This document shows, piece by piece, positions 408 to 8,965 of a DNA stretch of 64,000 nt (its first letter is position 1; the number at the start of each line of letters is the position of its first letter). Source of the DNA: a virus (lineage: Duplodnaviria > Caudoviricetes); the IMG/VR virus record IMGVR_UViG_3300031418_000003, one strand, 5' to 3'. The notes under the pieces are model-generated. The model searched no databases, was not told the origin of the DNA, and worked only from the letters and a program-made list of their open reading frames with translations. The translations under genes and the position numbers were made by a program.

Positions 408-1115
408 TCAATGAATTGAATAATCTTCCTGCGGCAATACCACGTATTTATCGGAGTTAGGGTCTTTCAGGAGGTAATCTCCCTTGCGAGGGAACCGATG
501 TTTCCGACTACGGTAGTAGGTCAGATTTTCAAACTGGATGGTGTGGTCTTCCCCTTCGCACAAAATCACAACCGCATTTGTCATGGGCTGGTCGTAATCC
601 TGAATCTCACCGATGTAATTGAAGTTGCGAGTAGCACGGAACTCACCCACTACAAATACGTTACACAGTGGTTTCAGAGTTACGGTTGTCACAACCACCC
701 CGTTCTTGGTTAGACCAAAATGATATTTAATTTCATAATCGGATACCTTCAATCCTTTCATGCTAGTTTCAATATCGTCTACGAATGTATCCCATTCTTC
801 TTTGGAGGGAACAAATTCTTCATACTCGCTGCTGTTCAGGTGAGGGACAGGTTCCAGATAACGCAGATACTTAATGGACGCATCCAGAGCACACTTAGGA
901 TTATTGTCGTACGGTTTCATACAACCGGTATCACCGGAAATAATAGTCGAAACTAATCCCGCCCAACCATTGGTTGGTCCAGCACCGCCTCGAAAATCAA
1001 CCTTAGCTTCACCTGAAACATGCAAGTGAAGATTACCGATAGTATTCATGAGATGAACGATATCATCGGCAACGCCTTGGTTAACACCGTTATCATGTAT
1101 CTTAATCATGATCAC
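408..1115 (-). CDS. Hypothetical protein (235 aa)
   Basis: Long ORF, coupled to the upstream stop by a 4-nt overlap. Confidence 0.8.
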   Translation of the reverse strand: MIMIKIHDNGVNQGVADDIVHLMNTIGNLHLHVSGEAKVDFRGGAGPTNGWAGLVSTIISGDTGCMKPYDNNPKCALDASIKYLRYLEPVPHLNSSEYEEFVPSKEEWDTFVDDIETSMKGLKVSDYEIKYHFGLTKNGVVVTTVTLKPLCNVFVVGEFRATRNFNYIGEIQDYDQPMTNAVVILCEGEDHTIQFENLTYYRSRKHRFPRKGDYLLKDPNSDKYVVLPQEDYSIH

Positions 1116-2440
1116 ACCACCGAATTTAGTTCGACATACAGGTTGATGCGGGACTTGATTTGGTCCAGCAAACTGTTGACGATAACTTCGCCTGATTTAC
1201 CGATAACTGCCTTAGGACGACCAAATGCAATTTTGGCAGCACGTTTCCAGACGGGACTGTTACGGTTGTGAACGGAACCAAAGCTACTGCTGAATACCAT
1301 TGGGGAACTGAATTCACCAAACGGCTGAGGTTGTTTAACCGGCTGTTCAGCGGTCAGGTATTCAGGGAAGAAATCTTTCACACTGAATATTTCCCCGCCA
1401 ACCAACAGGTCGCACTGATTCAATCGCAGGAAAGGAAGCGGTTTGACTGCTGAGAAGAATCCATAGTCAACGCGTTTATCAATGGTGATAACGTTGCTCC
1501 CGTGATAGGTTGGATAATCCGCAACCGGGGTGTAATCTTTGAGTAACGGTGCATATCCCCCGCTGAAGTCAAAGGTGTGGAGATACTGATTGGTGGACAA
1601 GAAATCCAACGATCTACTACCATCGCCGAAAATTGCGAATACGAAGTCTTGACCACCCGTTGCGCGAGTCAGCGTGATGGACCCGAGACCGGTGATTCCA
1701 ATACCGTAGACATCAGAGTCACTGACCGACATGTAATTAGCAGCAAAGAGACGAGAGCTTTCAATTCTCGAATCATCAATGCTGAGATACTGGGCCGGTC
1801 CCTGGATTGACGAATGGGTGACCGATGAGTCAATTAATGTAATACTGTTGTTCGATTCAATAACCGAATTAAACAGAATGGTGTTACCCAGGAATGATAA
1901 TGTCTTGGTGATGACGGAACTGGCCAAGATGACTAATGCCGGCTTGCCGTACTTGTTATCGTGTCCGACGAAAGGAGCGTCACCATAGTAATCATCCCGA
2001 TAAAGTGTATCGGAGATAATCAGTTTGGAACCGGTACTGATGTAAATATCCAGACCATCGACCTGCAGATGTTTAAATTTCAAATCCTTATGTGCAAGTT
2101 TCTGGCCGAAGGTCCATTTACCTGAACCTCCTTTGTGCCGAGTGCGCTGATTTTCAAAAATGTTATCAACATCGCGATAGAAAGGAATCACACTTCCCAA
2201 GTCAACCGGGATGTCTTTTATTTCGACATCTTTCAGTTCAAACTGTTTGCCGGCAATTTCCACAATGGGTTCGTGCTTGGGGTCGTTGATGTAAGGACGA
2301 CGAGCTTCGAGAACCTGGCGAGGTGCTAGGAAAGGAACATCCTCTAAACCAAGACCTTCCTCAACAACAAGTTTATTTGCAAGCTCTACAACTTCAACCG
2401 GCTCCAACTCAACGGCGACTTCTTTTGCTTTCTTAGTCAT
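1112..2440 (-). CDS. Hypothetical protein (442 aa) with a probable beta-solenoid central region
   Basis: Long ORF with RBS; central run of S/I/D-rich short repeats (LFNSVIESNNSITLIDSSVTHSSIQ...IDDSRIESSRL...VSDSDV). Confidence 0.8.
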   Translation of the reverse strand: MTKKAKEVAVELEPVEVVELANKLVVEEGLGLEDVPFLAPRQVLEARRPYINDPKHEPIVEIAGKQFELKDVEIKDIPVDLGSVIPFYRDVDNIFENQRTRHKGGSGKWTFGQKLAHKDLKFKHLQVDGLDIYISTGSKLIISDTLYRDDYYGDAPFVGHDNKYGKPALVILASSVITKTLSFLGNTILFNSVIESNNSITLIDSSVTHSSIQGPAQYLSIDDSRIESSRLFAANYMSVSDSDVYGIGITGLGSITLTRATGGQDFVFAIFGDGSRSLDFLSTNQYLHTFDFSGGYAPLLKDYTPVADYPTYHGSNVITIDKRVDYGFFSAVKPLPFLRLNQCDLLVGGEIFSVKDFFPEYLTAEQPVKQPQPFGEFSSPMVFSSSFGSVHNRNSPVWKRAAKIAFGRPKAVIGKSGEVIVNSLLDQIKSRINLYVELNSVV

Positions 2441-3180: not shown

Positions 3181-3226
3181 CGGTATTACCTCACATCTTC
3201 TAATTGACGAACAGTCATGGTGCATC

Positions 3227-3568
3227 CTAATTAAGAGTAGGTTTAGGTTCTAACCTCACCACGGTTAATGGGTTAGAACGGTTGGATGGATTCGTGATAC
3301 CAAAAATCCAGGCAACTTCGTTCTCGTGAAAATGCAGATAACCTTCATAAGAAAAGTCCTTGGAGAAATCGACACTCACCGTTTTCACGTTTTTAGAGAG
3401 TTCTTCATCCTGCCAGGCATCTTCTTTACTTAAAGGGGTGATCTCATAACGCTGATCACCGACATACACAAAACACTTACCTTTGCGAATATAGACCTTT
3501 GCAAATGTTCCATGGAGTGCTTTGCATTCATGCATATCCAAAGACTTAAGGTTTAATGGAGCCATCAT
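3227..3568 (-). CDS. Hypothetical protein (113 aa)
   Basis: ORF coupled to the upstream gene by a 4-nt overlap. Confidence 0.7.
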   Translation of the reverse strand: MMAPLNLKSLDMHECKALHGTFAKVYIRKGKCFVYVGDQRYEITPLSKEDAWQDEELSKNVKTVSVDFSKDFSYEGYLHFHENEVAWIFGITNPSNRSNPLTVVRLEPKPTLN

Positions 3569-4461
3569 CTCACCCCGCGACGTTTCGCTACCGGATAGCG
3601 GTTACCTGCTTTACCGGTTACCACTTTCTTGTGACGCCCACCATTGGTAGAAATGTCATACCCATGTCCACCGCTACCCTGGTATGTCGTTACCATTGAA
3701 CTACCCAAAGACAATGCACCCGCCATGCCGTGCATTAATGAGCGCTTCATCAGACTCTGTTGTTCGGTAGTCGGTTCAAAATACGGAGTAGTAAGGCATT
3801 CTTCCATTGTTGACTCAACCTGACTCTGATAATGAGCGAGGGAACCTTTTACTTGATTCGCTCGACGAGCCCGTTCAGCGAGAAGTATTTCCATTTCCTT
3901 CTCCTGGCGATTTGCAACCTCAGTAGTCGCAGTCATCTCATCAAGTCCTTCTGTCCACATCAGCGAACGAATACGCTCGATAGTGTCATACATTAAGTGG
4001 AATCCATGCATGCCATATTTCTCTTTCATTTCGTGAACACGTTTAATCCACTCATCAGGATCTTTCACAAAACGTTTGTCGGTATCGGAATCTGGAATAA
4101 CCAGGTCATCGAATAAGCTGATCATTTCTTTGCTAAGTTCTTCAACTTCTTTTAGTCCGAGGCTTTTCTTGCTTTCATATTGCTGATCTGGGTACTTAAT
4201 AAAAGTACCAAGAATCCGCTTAGCCTGGATTCCATTAATGCACATACTTGAGGTATTGAAAGGATAAACCTTTTCACTGCCCTGAAGGTAGATGGTGTTA
4301 AACACTTCAACCACCAACGACATATCAAATTCTTTTGACAGTTCTTCAATCTTCAACATGGTTTTGTTATCAAAGATCCAGCTATCCACATCACTCTGAA
4401 CCATACCTAAATCAAACCCTTCTAAGCGTTGATGGATTTGTTTCTTAATTTCTTCAGACAT
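3565..4461 (-). CDS. Hypothetical protein (298 aa) with a basic C-terminal tail
   Basis: GAGGAG RBS; ends GGRHKKVVTGKAGNRYPVAKRRGVR. Confidence 0.8.
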   Translation of the reverse strand: MSEEIKKQIHQRLEGFDLGMVQSDVDSWIFDNKTMLKIEELSKEFDMSLVVEVFNTIYLQGSEKVYPFNTSSMCINGIQAKRILGTFIKYPDQQYESKKSLGLKEVEELSKEMISLFDDLVIPDSDTDKRFVKDPDEWIKRVHEMKEKYGMHGFHLMYDTIERIRSLMWTEGLDEMTATTEVANRQEKEMEILLAERARRANQVKGSLAHYQSQVESTMEECLTTPYFEPTTEQQSLMKRSLMHGMAGALSLGSSMVTTYQGSGGHGYDISTNGGRHKKVVTGKAGNRYPVAKRRGVR

Positions 4462-4475
4462 AATAAACTCCTCTA

Positions 4476-4505
4476 AGCGTATCTAGGGATATCCCTAGAT
4501 ACGCT
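4476..4505. repeat. Perfect 30-nt palindrome directly upstream of an RBS
   Basis: AGCGTATCTAGGGAT|ATCCCTAGATACGCT. Confidence 0.9.
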
Positions 4506-4513
4506 CTGTAGTA

Positions 4514-4654
4514 TTATTTCTTTTGGGCTTTAGCTTTGTCAGCGTCGTTGTACTCTTTGCCTACCGATTGAGGAACCCCAACCTTTTTAGCAAACTCCGG
4601 AGAGTGCGCGACTGCTGCCATAAACTTCTTTTGTTTCTCAGATACACTGGGCAT
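4514..4654 (-). CDS. 46-aa small basic protein (MPSVSEKQKKFMAAVAHSPEFAKKVGVPQSVGKEYNDADKAKAQKK)
   Basis: Hand translation; GGAGG RBS before ATG 4654, TAA at 4514. Resembles a small protein family I recall from many phages (function unknown). Not in the ORF track. Confidence 0.85.
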   Translation of the reverse strand: MPSVSEKQKKFMAAVAHSPEFAKKVGVPQSVGKEYNDADKAKAQKK

Positions 4655-4681
4655 TTAATCCTCCAACATTAAGTCAAAGAA

Positions 4682-4915
4682 TTAATACAAAGGCATCCCC
4701 AGTTTATACAGAGTGACCAACATAATAATAACAAAAGTTACAAAACTAAGTATTGCTCTAATTCGATATGAAGAGAGATGACTATCAAGCGCCTTCTTAT
4801 CATCTTTGATTTTGATGGCCTTGATTACATGGTACCCAACATTGATTATCTCCATCAGAAGGTACACCCCAACCGCTGAGATAAAATAGAATATCGAGTT
4901 TAATTGCTCTGGCAT
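4682..4915 (-). CDS. Small membrane protein (77 aa, 2 TM)
   Basis: Two hydrophobic segments; starts 3 nt after the AAA ATPase stop. Confidence 0.75.
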   Translation of the reverse strand: MPEQLNSIFYFISAVGVYLLMEIINVGYHVIKAIKIKDDKKALDSHLSSYRIRAILSFVTFVIIMLVTLYKLGMPLY

Positions 4916-4918
4916 AGC

Positions 4919-6286
4919 TTATTCTCCACTTGCATTCAACAGAAATACATTATCTTCTTTTAAAGACAACAGGGCTTTAGTGAAATCATTCACCGACCAC
5001 TTGTTATCCAGGAAGTGTTTGCTCACAGTTGCCACAGGTAATGACGGAAGTGTTTCGCCGACATAATCTGTTTTGTACATGAGCTTGATATAACTAACGA
5101 TATCCTCGTGACTGAAGTAGTCAACCAGGATACGGCGGTCTACACGACCATCACGAATCAACGCAGGATCCAATTTCTCGGGATGGTTGGTGGTAATCAA
5201 TACGATTACATCATCCAGAGGAATAACGCCCTGAAGGCCGTTCAGGAGGTCTGACAGTGACCCGCCCAGATACTCAGACAAAGCGTCGCCAAAAGAAGCG
5301 CCCTCATCGTCATCGGTATTGATTGGGGTGAGAGTAGAACCGCTACTGATTTTGGTCGTTGGAACAGCTACACCTGCTTCTACATCAGTCACCGCAGAAG
5401 TGCGTTTACGTGCGATGCCGAACGCATCGATATCCTCGATAAGCACCACTCCACCTTTGGCGTTCTGGAACAGAGAAGTATACGAGATATCACCATCAGG
5501 AGACATCTTATAAAGATTACGTCCCAGCACATTTGCTACTTCACGGGCAATTGAACTTTTGCCGGTACCAGGAGGTCCGTACAGTAACGCACAAAACTTA
5601 TAGTCCAGACCGCGCTCCATATACCATTCACGGCTGTTGACAAACTCTTTAAGAGGGTCAATAAGTTCCTCTTGGATATTCTTCTGAATAACCATCGTTC
5701 CAGGACGACGTTTCTGGGTACGAGTTACCCAGGTCCAATCGGTTTTATTGGCATCAAACATGGTGATGTAATTAGCCGGGTCAGCTTGATCCATAAACGC
5801 ATCCATCAATTCATAAAGAGGTTGTTTAGACCGACCTATGACAGAAATGGAAATGTTGTATTTGGAGAGGTGAGTGCCCTGCGAATCTTTTTCAGTAATC
5901 CGAAAGAAGAAGAACCGTCTCTTAAAGATAAAGATATGGGTTCCGACACCTGGACCTACGGCACCAAACTCGTTACGGGATTCACCGTCAAGCGTGATGA
6001 TGCGACTCCAGTTAAACCAGGCGTTCTTACTGAACCATTTCAGGAAAGCAGTATACTGCATCTGGTTATAATCACCCCAAGTGGAACCTGAGGTATTAAA
6101 GGTTAGTGACGTCATACACTGACCACGGAAGAAATTACCAATAGTTTTCGGTAACTTAATTAATAAGAAACCAATCAGTCCCGCAATAGAAACCGAAGAG
6201 ATGGTGACAAGTGCCGCTTGTGCTTGTGGCATGTGAACCGTTTGGTCCAGTACAGTTTGGTACAGACCCATTACCCATTCAATCAT
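4919..6286 (-). CDS. BCS1-like membrane-anchored AAA+ ATPase (455 aa)
   Basis: N-terminal TM (ALVTISSVSIAGLIGFLLIKL), Walker A GPPGTGKS, Walker B VLIEDID, second region of homology TTNHPEKLDPALIRDGRVD. Confidence 0.85.
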   Translation of the reverse strand: MIEWVMGLYQTVLDQTVHMPQAQAALVTISSVSIAGLIGFLLIKLPKTIGNFFRGQCMTSLTFNTSGSTWGDYNQMQYTAFLKWFSKNAWFNWSRIITLDGESRNEFGAVGPGVGTHIFIFKRRFFFFRITEKDSQGTHLSKYNISISVIGRSKQPLYELMDAFMDQADPANYITMFDANKTDWTWVTRTQKRRPGTMVIQKNIQEELIDPLKEFVNSREWYMERGLDYKFCALLYGPPGTGKSSIAREVANVLGRNLYKMSPDGDISYTSLFQNAKGGVVLIEDIDAFGIARKRTSAVTDVEAGVAVPTTKISSGSTLTPINTDDDEGASFGDALSEYLGGSLSDLLNGLQGVIPLDDVIVLITTNHPEKLDPALIRDGRVDRRILVDYFSHEDIVSYIKLMYKTDYVGETLPSLPVATVSKHFLDNKWSVNDFTKALLSLKEDNVFLLNASGE

Positions 6287-6486
6287 GATTTAAACCTTTT
6301 TCTTATATCAGAAATGGAACTGAGTAACCCCAGTCCACCAAAAGTGACCAGAAAAGAAATGCCCGTCCCAAAAATGGCAACCACAACAATTGGCATCTTT
6401 TCCAGCATATGTATTGTAGGACCCAACAAAGATAATCCCATCAAAATCATTATTATAAATAATGTCAGATGTATCCAGTCCCGCAT
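6283..6486 (-). CDS. Small membrane protein (67 aa, 2 TM)
   Basis: Almost entirely hydrophobic; 4-nt overlap with the ATPase start. Confidence 0.75.
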   Translation of the reverse strand: MRDWIHLTLFIIMILMGLSLLGPTIHMLEKMPIVVVAIFGTGISFLVTFGGLGLLSSISDIRKRFKS

Positions 6487-6680
6487 TACCGATGTCCTTT
6501 ACTTTTCTGAGAGACCGGCCAGGAATGACGCTTACCCTGAACCACCTCTTGACGACTATTACCCTTTACAGTAATTGGATTGTCTTTAGGGGTGGGATGG
6601 GTTGAAATATGGATCAGCTCGATTCTATTGTCTCGATGCTGACGATAGGTGACATGCGTTGTTATACCATTATCTTTCAT
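6486..6680 (-). CDS. 64-aa hypothetical protein with the basic C-terminal tail
   Basis: TAATG coupling at both ends; ends GNSRQEVVQGKRHSWPVSQKSKGHR. Confidence 0.75.
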   Translation of the reverse strand: MKDNGITTHVTYRQHRDNRIELIHISTHPTPKDNPITVKGNSRQEVVQGKRHSWPVSQKSKGHR

Positions 6681-7108
6681 TATTGCATCATCCAGGATTT
6701 CATTATGTCATCGATTCTAGAACAGATCATTTTATCGAGAACAGTCTGATTTGCAAATAGCGCATCAGTAAACTGTTCACCATTATCTATTCGATAGATC
6801 TTGATACCATCAGTGTGAGATTTCTTTAACCCAGCCAAAATAAAATCGCTGCTGGTTAATGTACCTTTGGTTACCGTATCGTAAACACTTTTATCAGGAT
6901 AAAGAGCATAGTTCAGGATATACTTAATATCAGGATTTGACTCATATATCTGAATAATGAAATAAGGAAGCGGTTGATTATCAGCAGTGAGTAGTGCGAT
7001 TCTCAGCCCGATGTTTTTGGGTGTCTCAAAAGGAATGGTATTTTCAACCAATACCTGAGGATTGATAGGCTTTTCTGGATTCAATGTTACCGACATCATC
7101 ATTATCAT
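6680..7108 (-). CDS. Hypothetical protein (about 142 aa)
   Basis: ORF coupled at both ends. Confidence 0.75.
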   Translation of the reverse strand: MIMMMSVTLNPEKPINPQVLVENTIPFETPKNIGLRIALLTADNQPLPYFIIQIYESNPDIKYILNYALYPDKSVYDTVTKGTLTSSDFILAGLKKSHTDGIKIYRIDNGEQFTDALFANQTVLDKMICSRIDDIMKSWMMQ

Positions 7109-7284
7109 CTACCTCGACGTTTAGGTTCCGGCCAGGAATGTTTACCACCCATGATACGTTTCTGACGGGAATTACCAGCAACCGTTTCGGGTTCATAATT
7201 CCGGTACAGTTCCGCATTGGTCGTAGCCTTTGCTACAAGAGACAAGACTTTTACGATCTCGCCTGTTATAAAGTTCTTTGTCAT
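7105..7284 (-). CDS. 59-aa hypothetical protein (MTKNFITGEIVKVLSLVAKATTNAELYRNYEPETVAGNSRQKRIMGGKHSWPEPKRRGR)
   Basis: Hand translation; AAGGATAGG RBS before ATG 7284; TGA overlaps the next ATG (ATGA). Not in the ORF track. Confidence 0.8.
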   Translation of the reverse strand: MTKNFITGEIVKVLSLVAKATTNAELYRNYEPETVAGNSRQKRIMGGKHSWPEPKRRGR

Positions 7285-7294
7285 ACCTATCCTT

Positions 7295-7322
7295 AATAGA
7301 AGGGGATTCCTCCCCCTCTATT
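7295..7322 (-). terminator. Stem-loop (terminator or processing/stability hairpin)
   Basis: Minus strand AATAGAGGGGGA-GGAA-TCCCCTTCTATT, immediately followed by an RBS. Confidence 0.6.
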
Positions 7323-7324
7323 TA

Positions 7325-7918
7325 TTAAGAAAGTTGTAGACGTGGTTTGAGCTTTTCAATAAAGCGTAATCCACCAACAATATTACCCGTCTCAACCAAT
7401 TGACGAGCTACCTGACACAGTGCCGTTTCGGTTGTAAACACCAAACGGTTACATTGGGTCTCATCGACACAGCCAAAACTGTCGACAAATGAATCAATCT
7501 CTTCTGAATACTCCACCGTGTTTCGGAATGCAAACAACGGCTCTTGAGTAATCTTCAGGTTATAATGATACACCGCCTGATAAAGAAAGAGACGCACCTG
7601 GTGCTGATAGATCTTATCCACAGACTTGGTATCAAAGATAAGTTCAATCCAGTTACCGCCGTTGCCCTTCAATGTTGCACTGATTTCGGCTGCATACATC
7701 CCCATCGTGTAACCGGGTTGGGTCAACACTTTGGCAAGTCCGAGAAGTCTGATGCGTTGAATAACGTCGTCATGGATACTGGGATACGGCTTCAACGCAG
7801 ATCGAACTTCACAAGGGCACAAACGGTCTAATTCAACTAACTGAAGACCAGCTTGGATGCACGACTTATGATGATGCATTTCACGAACCAGCGTATTAGA
7901 AGGGTCAATATTTAACAT
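7325..7918 (-). CDS. Hypothetical protein (197 aa, start MLNIDPS)
   Basis: AAGGA RBS before ATG 7918. Confidence 0.75.
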   Translation of the reverse strand: MLNIDPSNTLVREMHHHKSCIQAGLQLVELDRLCPCEVRSALKPYPSIHDDVIQRIRLLGLAKVLTQPGYTMGMYAAEISATLKGNGGNWIELIFDTKSVDKIYQHQVRLFLYQAVYHYNLKITQEPLFAFRNTVEYSEEIDSFVDSFGCVDETQCNRLVFTTETALCQVARQLVETGNIVGGLRFIEKLKPRLQLS

Positions 7919-7981
7919 AGGTAAATCCTTGAGCAAAGTAAAATAAAGTATGTGTAGTCTTACATCGCTTCCATATGAAAA

Positions 7982-8965
7982 TTAAAACCTTTTATATCCT
8001 GGCCTTCTTATGACGAAGGCTTTCTTACCGGTACATAAGTCGGGATACTCTAAAGGAGAAAGAATAATGTCAGATAAAATGTTCCAGTAGGAATTATCGA
8101 CCTTGTTTTTGAGTGGCGCTCTCGTGTCATTAATAAACTTCGCCATTACATTTGTTTTCGCATTATCTTTTAAATAAAGATTTGCGGTATTAAATATGGC
8201 TGGGTTATCCCGCAACATAAGTGCATAATTTTCTTCGTTAGCACAGAAGAGTCTTAAATGATAGGGAAACGCTGAGATATATTTCAGTTCATCAATCCCG
8301 ACATCATCAAACAACTTAATCAGTCTCTGAGATTCTTTCTCTTTATGAATCAGTGTTTTATTGAAACGTGCCAACTGATAGATAGAGAAAAGAATTTCAT
8401 CGCTAGACATTACCGAGCTGTTAGGATCCATCCAGAAGGCAGGATGTTTTACATACTGCTGGATATCTTCCACTGACCCATATTTGACATTAGCATCATT
8501 TCTGACGATCTTTGCCTGGGCAATGAAGATAGTCGGTACTGCTAACGGATCTTTCTTATCTTTGTGGGCATAGAGCTTTACCGGCACAGCAATGTACCCT
8601 TCAGGCACTTCGTCAGGATAAAGGAATCCATATTCTTCACCGCACCACATCGGATAGTTCTTACCGAAGTAATCAATATCACGAGCAATGCGCCAACCAC
8701 CGGTCATGGTTTCCACTTTACTTTCACCCGGACCCGCCAGACGAACATGAGTAACATCATCATCTTCGATGTTACCATTACGCATACACCAGCCGCCGCC
8801 GTTAGGCATCGCGTCATGAACCTCACCACCGGCGTCAGTAATGAAATAAGGGTTCTTGAGGCGACTACCATTGAAGGGAACGGTCACCCCAAACACAAAT
8901 GGGTTATGGTTAAACCTCTTATTCATGTCATAAATAACAGCTTTGTTGTCGGTTTCGTTGTTCAC
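7982..8965 (-). CDS. Hypothetical protein (327 aa, GTG start)
   Basis: AAGGA RBS; the start overlaps the upstream stop. Confidence 0.8.
   Translation of the reverse strand: MNNETDNKAVIYDMNKRFNHNPFVFGVTVPFNGSRLKNPYFITDAGGEVHDAMPNGGGWCMRNGNIEDDDVTHVRLAGPGESKVETMTGGWRIARDIDYFGKNYPMWCGEEYGFLYPDEVPEGYIAVPVKLYAHKDKKDPLAVPTIFIAQAKIVRNDANVKYGSVEDIQQYVKHPAFWMDPNSSVMSSDEILFSIYQLARFNKTLIHKEKESQRLIKLFDDVGIDELKYISAFPYHLRLFCANEENYALMLRDNPAIFNTANLYLKDNAKTNVMAKFINDTRAPLKNKVDNSYWNILSDIILSPLEYPDLCTGKKAFVIRRPGYKRF

Follow-up and report, generated by a model that had tools for sequence, protein, structure and literature searches.

A conserved basic C-terminal tail in a mosaic protein family at one locus of nucleus-forming jumbo phages

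Three tail genes and their distribution

We analyzed a stretch of 64,000 nucleotides (nt; hereafter the window) from the IMG/VR virus record IMGVR_UViG_3300031418_000003 (Duplodnaviria; Caudoviricetes), which is part of a complete 266,753-bp phage genome. The nearest GenBank relative is Erwinia phage AH04 (Meadowvirus, Chimalliviridae), with about 82% identity over parts of the region described here. Three minus-strand genes of the window, P0001, P0002, and P0003 (Table 1), encode proteins that end in a similar basic segment, here called the tail. An earlier reading of the letters alone (the sequence-only reading) had proposed these open reading frames (ORFs) and their shared C-terminal tails, and both were as claimed on re-reading. 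The proteins end in ...NGGRHKKVVTGKAGNRYPVAKRRGVR (P0001), ...KGNSRQEVVQGKRHSWPVSQKSKGHR (P0002), and ...AGNSRQKRIMGGKHSWPEPKRRGR (P0003), with the motif at the extreme C-terminus in all three. The core of the tail comprises two hydrophobic residues, x, G-K, 2-4 residues, W/Y-P, x, A/P, and K/R, followed by (K/R)(K/R)-G-x-R at or near the end. The tail is about 30-36 residues long, and across the relatives its canonical form is approximately [ED]DRPxTV[KR]GN[GS]RQk[IL][IV]DNGKxxWPxA[KR]xRKGHR. The tails of P0002 and P0003 are of this type (type A), while that of P0001 is a divergent form (type B). The 13-nt identity CATTCCTGGCCGG reported at 6515-6527 and 7128-7140 was confirmed, and it occurs nowhere else in the window.

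The similarity of the tails was evaluated with the last 30 amino acids (aa) of each protein and 20,000 composition-preserving shuffles. The tails of P0002 and P0003 aligned with a score of 75, which none of the shuffles reached. The scores of P0001 against P0003 and P0002 were 40 and 35, and 17 and 116 of the shuffles, respectively, were as high. The N-terminal parts of the two small proteins showed no detectable similarity (8008 of 20,000 shuffles as high), as the sequence-only reading had stated. When the C-terminal 32-mers of the 728 ORFs of at least 50 aa in the whole genome were compared, the best two non-self matches of the P0001 tail were the other two tails. A hidden Markov model (HMM) built from the tails of eight outside phages detected P0002 with an E-value of 4.2e-11 and P0003 with 1.2e-8, and the next ORF of the genome had an E-value of about 6. 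Scans of all six frames of the genome with regular expressions and HMMs found no fourth copy of the tail. These results indicate that P0002 and P0003 share the tail beyond doubt.

A tblastn search with P0002 matched AH04 and the C-termini of hypothetical proteins of 240-337 aa in eight other jumbo phages, and nothing else. These were Pseudomonas phage OBP (E 7e-5 against 2.3 Gb), Pantoea phage Survivor, Serratia phages Yubaba and Sureiya, Shewanella phage SXP01, Klebsiella phage N1M2, Kosakonia phage Kc263, and Edwardsiella phage pEt-SU. Together with AH04 they were the only phages with the tail among 50,697 GenBank phage records. Moreover, when 1.84 billion representative proteins were searched with a profile built from five tails, there were 45 matches at E<=1e-3, 22 of them at E<=1e-10. 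In 44 of the 45, which were 59-484 aa long, the match ended at the C-terminus or no more than about 12 residues from it, and the 45th was an unrelated repeat protein. Six canonical tails searched in IMG/VR recovered pEt-SU and OBP and no others. An HMM scan of other jumbo phages had been proposed along with the sequence-only reading; further C-terminal matches were found in them, and the similarity went beyond that of shuffled tails.

All tail-bearing phages are nucleus-forming phages (Chimalliviridae), and every tail context examined was one locus in the subclade OBP/pEt-SU/N1M2/Kc263/AH04 of this family. The gene order at the locus is a helix-turn-helix (HTH) regulator, a protein of about 325 aa, (one of about 115 aa), one of about 200 aa, the tail gene, small membrane proteins, and proteins of about 160, about 450, and about 235 aa. 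When the proteins of the window were searched by tblastn against the loci of the nine phages, the tail gene lay in the same block each time, and three further profile matches on jumbo phage contigs (L012, L013, and L015) lay in the same syntenic block. By synteny, P0003 occupies the position of the long tail gene in related phages. The true relatives with the same tail and locus include OBP_174, pETSU_103, pETSU_112, N1M2_137, AH04_161, AH04_162, and AH04_169, which are labeled hypothetical in GenBank. HMM scans of this genome and its nine relatives gave one to three carriers per genome, all at the tail locus, and no replication, transcription, or known virion protein with the tail.

Table 1. 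Features of the tail locus in the window (positions in nt of the window; aa positions refer to the protein).
Feature	Position	Strand	Remarks
P0001, 298 aa, long-form tail-family member	3565..4461	-	Helical orphan body and type B tail; homologue AH04_169
P0001 type B tail, aa 263-298	3568..3675	-	SGGHGYDISTNGGRHKKVVTGKAGNRYPVAKRRGVR
P0001 DxDSWI module, about aa 19-41	4339..4407	-	Common to long type A carriers in other phages
P0002, 64 aa, mini tail protein	6486..6680	-	AH04_162 84% identical; relatives P0007, P0008, P0011, P0020
P0002 type A tail, aa 33-64	6489..6584	-	NPITVKGNSRQEVVQGKRHSWPVSQKSKGHR
P0003, 59 aa, mini tail protein	7105..7284	-	AH04_161 83% identical; synteny
P0003 type A tail, aa 31-59	7108..7194	-	EPETVAGNSRQKRIMGGKHSWPEPKRRGR
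BCS1-like membrane AAA ATPase	4919..6286	-	Pfam AAA and BCS1_N, phrog_7485; outside the conserved setting of the tail family
67-aa two-helix membrane protein	6283..6486	-	ATG overlaps P0002 stop (TAATG); absent in AH04
142-aa orphan gene between the two minis	6680..7108	-	ATG overlaps P0003 stop (ATGA)
442-aa downstream neighbor	1112..2440	-	Full-length homologues in exactly the same nine GenBank phages as the tail
203-aa upstream neighbor	7325..7936	-	Homologues upstream of the tail gene, adjoining or one gene off
327-aa upstream neighbor (phrog_10978)	7982..8965	-	In all nine tail-bearing phages

Homologues of the 203-aa neighbor were found in AH04, Kc263, Yubaba, Sureiya, and Survivor (E up to 1e-3) and in contigs L012 and L013, with marginal matches only in N1M2 (E 0.007) and L015 (E 0.041). 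Part of the 327-aa protein also occurs in Aeromonas PS1-like and Erwinia RAY-like phages. A basic protein of 46 aa (MPSVSEKQKKFMAAVAHSPEFAKKVG..., 4514-4654, minus strand) is 82-96% identical in AH04, Yubaba, Sureiya, SXP01, and N1M2, compared to 25-35% for the neighboring genes; its matches were phrog_16759 and, at their N-termini, two 'virion structural protein' PHROGs. The gene for a 113-aa protein (3227-3568, minus strand) has an ATGA overlap with P0001 and belongs to a small family with tandem pairs in AH04, pEt-SU, and contig L012. Between the 203-aa and 59-aa genes lies a G+C-rich stem-loop (7296-7322; AATAGAGGGGGAGGAATCCCCTTCTATT on the minus strand), which could be a terminator or a regulatory hairpin starting a new unit at the tail genes; a promoter and terminator scan gave no excess over shuffles. 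The DNA of 3200-7400 was also present (93-100% of sampled words) in phyllosphere and plant metagenome runs of several studies, and this distribution fits a plant-associated Erwinia/Pantoea-type host. Among the sequencing runs, good cover of the region came only from DNA contigs.

Carrier proteins and conservation of the tail

The long carriers contain the recurrent modules NxNGRxY, DxDSWI, LTMKxEYxF, HPRHW/Y, and STGMALxTDMEGWG in varying combinations, and with the tails removed, 29 of them formed one single-linkage BLAST cluster. P0001 is a member of this mosaic family: it was matched with an E-value of 4e-7 by an HMM of the DxDSWI module. The small proteins are reduced, nearly tail-only forms. 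The description of the carriers as otherwise unrelated proteins was thus not borne out. Among the 45 database matches, 16 were small carriers of 59-135 aa in at least nine groups, with leaders that are mutually unrelated, and two of these 16 link to the long cluster. P0008, P0041, and others look like reduced long forms because they keep a remnant of the NxNGRxY module. In one 257-kb phage contig the sole form at the locus was a type B protein of 61 aa, and no long form was present. Together with the tail-only minis, this leaves the tail as the one element that is indispensable.

The lineage of this phage has three carriers, of which one is long and the other two consist of little more than the tail. 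In AH04 the two mini genes lie next to each other; relative to this order, the 142-aa and 67-aa genes of the window were each inserted exactly at the boundary after a mini gene. The 142-aa orphan had no homologue in the 50,697 phage records. A related strain from a food metagenome (run X13) is without the 67-aa gene and has 12 nt instead, with the joint 6304->6517. Outside the window, AH04_168 (L001:2654-2980, minus strand), a tail-less protein of 108 aa, is a partial duplicate of the mid-body of P0001/AH04_169 (DxWIKR..EMKEKYG). These comparisons show a family that evolves fast by mosaic reshuffling, with N-terminal bodies that are shuffled, truncated, or replaced.

A resemblance of the N-terminal NxNGRxY...HP module of long carriers in other phages, such as P0023, P0026, and P0028, to the N-terminus of T4 gp21-type prohead proteases (PF03420) was considered. 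It was unsupported, since eight long carriers gave no Pfam match at E<=1 and PF03420 found nothing in this genome. The NxNGRxY...HP module is absent from the three proteins of the window.

The tail changed far less than the rest of the carriers. P0001 and AH04_169 are 46-51% identical overall, with body stretches down to 7-60% identity, while about the last 47 residues are near-invariant. Within residues 257-286, 29 of 30 amino acids were identical, and 16 of the 29 identical codons were synonymously changed. The mini proteins and their AH04 counterparts had 15 of 15 identical residues each, with 6 and 2 synonymous changes. Moreover, the two minis use different codons, AGT and TCC, for the Ser of the G-N-S-R-Q box. 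Since the amino acids of the tail are near-invariant while about half of the codons differ synonymously, selection acts on the peptide and not on the DNA. The synonymous changes and the two Ser codons exclude that the similarity is due mainly to conserved DNA or to gene conversion in the recent past. These results indicate strong purifying selection on the tail at the protein level.

The last 30 residues carry a net charge of +5 to +9, and an acidic linker often precedes them. In the AlphaFold2 model of P0001 the body was helical and the tail unstructured, with a predicted local distance difference test (pLDDT) of 30-43; fold searches of this model in the PDB and BFVD returned AH04 homologues only. 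The model of P0002 from a 33-row alignment had strands in the tail at aa 41-48 and 53-55 (pLDDT 65-73). A predicted complex of three P0002 copies, also from a 33-row alignment, scored 0.06 compared to a mark of 0.42, which is evidence neither way.

In agreement with the sequence-only reading, the tail had no known relative in Pfam, PHROGs, or the PDB. The tail segments matched nothing in Pfam at E<=10, the tail profile gave one chance match (Antigen 43, E 0.94) among all PDB chains, and no usable match to the tail or P0002 was found in the ESM Atlas. When the three proteins, their neighbors, and eight long relatives were searched against Pfam and PHROG, only the AAA ATPase, the HTH protein, and the 46-aa protein were matched. 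A resemblance to ribosomal protein bL34 (PF00468), suggested by the pattern TKNGRQVL...RRAKGRKRL, was not supported, as the tail segments had no Pfam match at E<=10 and the tail profile matched no bL34 chain of the PDB. Descriptions of the motif and of OBP_174-like proteins were not found among the papers searchable here.

Proposed role of the tail and its alternatives

We propose, with a probability of about 0.55, that the three tails are homologous and represent one C-terminal module of one fast-evolving family at one locus, and that this module is a basic peptide for docking, which stays disordered until it binds and forms the functional end of the protein. The tail would then be the effector end and not a label on cargo. 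Strongly basic and disordered alone, it would probably form a short beta-hairpin followed by a basic arm on binding, and the carrier would dock through it to one conserved putative partner. This partner would most likely be polyanionic, either a nucleic acid or a conserved protein of phage or host that presents an acidic surface. Judged by synteny and distribution, candidate phage partners are the 442-aa and 203-aa neighbors and the 327-aa neighbor, whose distribution is wider. The variable bodies would be add-ons that modulate or extend the function, and the last K/R-G codons would have a second role as the Shine-Dalgarno site for the next gene downstream, which is translationally coupled. 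That the terminal peptide stays constant while the remainder is rapidly reshuffled would suit an accessory or host-interaction function subject to diversifying pressure.

Several observations weigh against this proposal. Compared by their tails alone, types A and B were linked only marginally. The type A HMM of the eight outside phages gave the P0001 tail only 2.1 bits. Among about 7,300 ORFs, the highest score of HMM A for a type B sequence was 11 bits (E 0.11), in a match that ran flush to the C-terminus, and in reverse HMM B found type A with an E-value of 1.1. An hhalign comparison of full-length P0001 and AH04_169 with the eight outside long proteins gave a probability of 0.5% and no match. 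The beta-hairpin of P0002 was predicted with only moderate confidence (pLDDT 65-73), packed against the N-terminal hairpin of the same protein. In addition, the strictly conserved non-basic positions (T, V, N, Q, D, and W-P) would be unusual for simple electrostatic binding of nucleic acid, and a targeting role confined to this family may exist.

The low type A score, the empty hhalign comparison, and the three indels required to align the P0001 tail would be explained if its resemblance were a matter of chance among Gly-rich basic C-termini, with a real module only in the two small proteins. On the other hand, the 17 and 116 of 20,000 shuffles speak against chance, and the type A and type B tails are reciprocal best matches across the genome, in alignments flush with the C-terminus. 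Bridging tails link the two types. pETSU_112, which ends in ...ASNGLREIITGPQGNRYPSPKRRKGSR, had E-values of 1e-3 with HMM B and 0.03 with HMM A, and an unannotated 57-aa ORF of SXP01 (L005:4340-4513, plus strand), ending in ...VVLGKNRAWPVPKKRGR, scored with both HMMs. The DxDSWI HMM, although built from type A carriers alone, matched P0001 at residues 19-41, and its next six-frame match in the genome had an E-value of 0.5. The type B tail was near-invariant in six proteins whose bodies are 31-67% identical, one of them of just 61 aa, and type B also has the long-plus-mini architecture (P0047). The bridging sequences and the shared N-terminal module place P0001 in the family, and its tail is very probably homologous to the other two, which makes chance resemblance improbable. 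The 57-aa ORF is some 230 nt downstream from the main SXP01 tail gene, with a small membrane ORF in between. Survivor XCN28270 (66 aa) ends in ...HGKNNSWPIPRGKGFRY.

What is conserved might also be the DNA, as a regulatory or translational-coupling element at gene ends that is read in one frame, or as the product of recent gene conversion. The stop of every tail overlaps the ATG of the following gene (ATGA or TAATG), and this ATG is preceded at 8-10 nt by the K/R-G codons (mostly AAA GGA), which therefore double as the Shine-Dalgarno site of the downstream gene; the two minis also have the 13 identical nucleotides in common. The Shine-Dalgarno overlap appears to be a real but small nucleotide-level constraint, which accounts for the last 3-4 codons at most. 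Moreover, about half of the identical tail codons were synonymously changed relative to AH04 at constant amino acids, the Ser codon differs between the minis, and the tail is kept where the next gene is uncoupled (L015 and L013). Conservation at the nucleotide level is thus very improbable as the explanation. The same holds, slightly more strongly, for the idea of the sequence-only reading that the tail is a recognition element or degron for the BCS1-like membrane AAA ATPase. The gene of this ATPase sits among the tail genes in this phage, AH04, and pEt-SU. Among the nine tail-bearing phages it was found in AH04 and pEt-SU only (E about 1e-180), which served as positive controls, while the whole genomes of OBP, Survivor, Yubaba, Sureiya, SXP01, N1M2, and Kc263 were without it. 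Because seven of the nine have the tail without the ATPase, a link between the two is highly unlikely. The ATPase was also 59-61% identical to the pEt-SU and AH04 versions, compared to 25-35% for other genes of distant phages, which suggests a mobile accessory cassette that was horizontally exchanged and lies in the tail locus.

A portable sorting signal that directs its carriers to a compartment (phage nucleus, procapsid or ejected-protein pool, or membrane), in the manner of encapsulin cargo-loading peptides or the T4 capsid-targeting sequence, is possible but unlikely. The tail is always at or next to the C-terminus, on differing bodies, and Chimalliviridae must sort proteins; the locus is rich in small membrane proteins, and the conserved 46-aa neighbor matches virion structural PHROGs. 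However, the tail occurs on no further protein of this genome and is therefore not a sorting tag used genome-wide, and the HMMs placed the one to three carriers of each genome at this single locus in the nine relatives as well. The carriers of 59-64 aa are essentially free of cargo, and the long ones are one mosaic family and not unrelated cargo. Of the portable terminal tag, what stood was a real conserved terminal module that is kept while the rest changes; its placement on varied cargo did not. The tail could instead be a self-association module, a foldon-like hairpin that builds homo- or hetero-oligomers. This would suit the short predicted C-terminal hairpin around an N-G/G-K turn, the conserved Trp, and the several carriers co-encoded in this lineage. 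However, the high net positive charge should oppose association without a polyanion, most phages have one strong copy only, and the tail has no hydrophobic core segment, which leaves self-association with little probability.

Relation to known systems and biological meaning

Encapsulin cargo-loading peptides and bacterial microcompartment encapsulation peptides occur on enzymes unrelated to one another, have mostly hydrophobic or amphipathic sequences, and are encoded beside the shell gene. The tail may be compared with them as a short conserved terminal peptide with a variable remainder, probably disordered until bound and in a fixed gene neighborhood. Unlike them, its carriers are one mosaic family or almost tail-only, it is strongly basic, and it has no known adjacency to a shell gene. 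The tail is also analogous to the arginine-rich-motif RNA-binding peptides (the beta-hairpin of bovine immunodeficiency virus Tat and the lambda and P22 N peptides): it is short, very basic, and rich in Gly and Arg/Lys, would be unstructured alone, and probably forms a hairpin on binding. It differs from them in having many invariant non-basic positions and a C-terminal rather than N-terminal location, and there is no sequence relationship. The T4 capsid-targeting sequence of the internal proteins and Alt is likewise a conserved terminal peptide on diverse phage proteins. That signal, of about 10 residues, sits at the N-terminus and is cleaved off by the prohead protease, while the tail is C-terminal and about 30 residues long, and no canonical S/A/G-x-E cleavage site lies just before it. 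The motif and the family are undescribed in the libraries and literature searched, whereas a conserved terminal peptide on variable proteins is a known idea.

Protein sorting and anchoring in nucleus-forming jumbo phages are only partly understood, and we know of no simple linear signal that has been defined for them. It is conceivable, although doubtful, that the tail is a new address or docking peptide of this Chimalliviridae subclade, which would deliver its carriers to one specific viral structure or anchor them there, with the minis as competitors or regulators of that site. Candidate sites would be DNA (packaged or ejected), the compartment of early infection, or the nuclear shell. If so, the tail would be one of the earliest linear motifs for targeting or docking to be defined in nucleus-forming phages.

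The tail is also a useful handle for annotators, as it points to small genes that are easily missed, such as the 59-aa gene, which was skipped by the annotation track, and the 57-aa gene of SXP01. It is short enough for synthesis, reporter fusion, and use as a bait, which offers a cheap route to a partner in an uncharacterized gene region. Should the tail bind nothing specific, it would still be a clear case of a mosaic family that is restricted to one clade and keeps its terminal module conserved. A peptide of 30-36 residues that stays near-constant across phages of Pseudomonas, Shewanella, and several Enterobacterales, while its attachments are reshuffled or lost, is the signature of a specific and important interaction.

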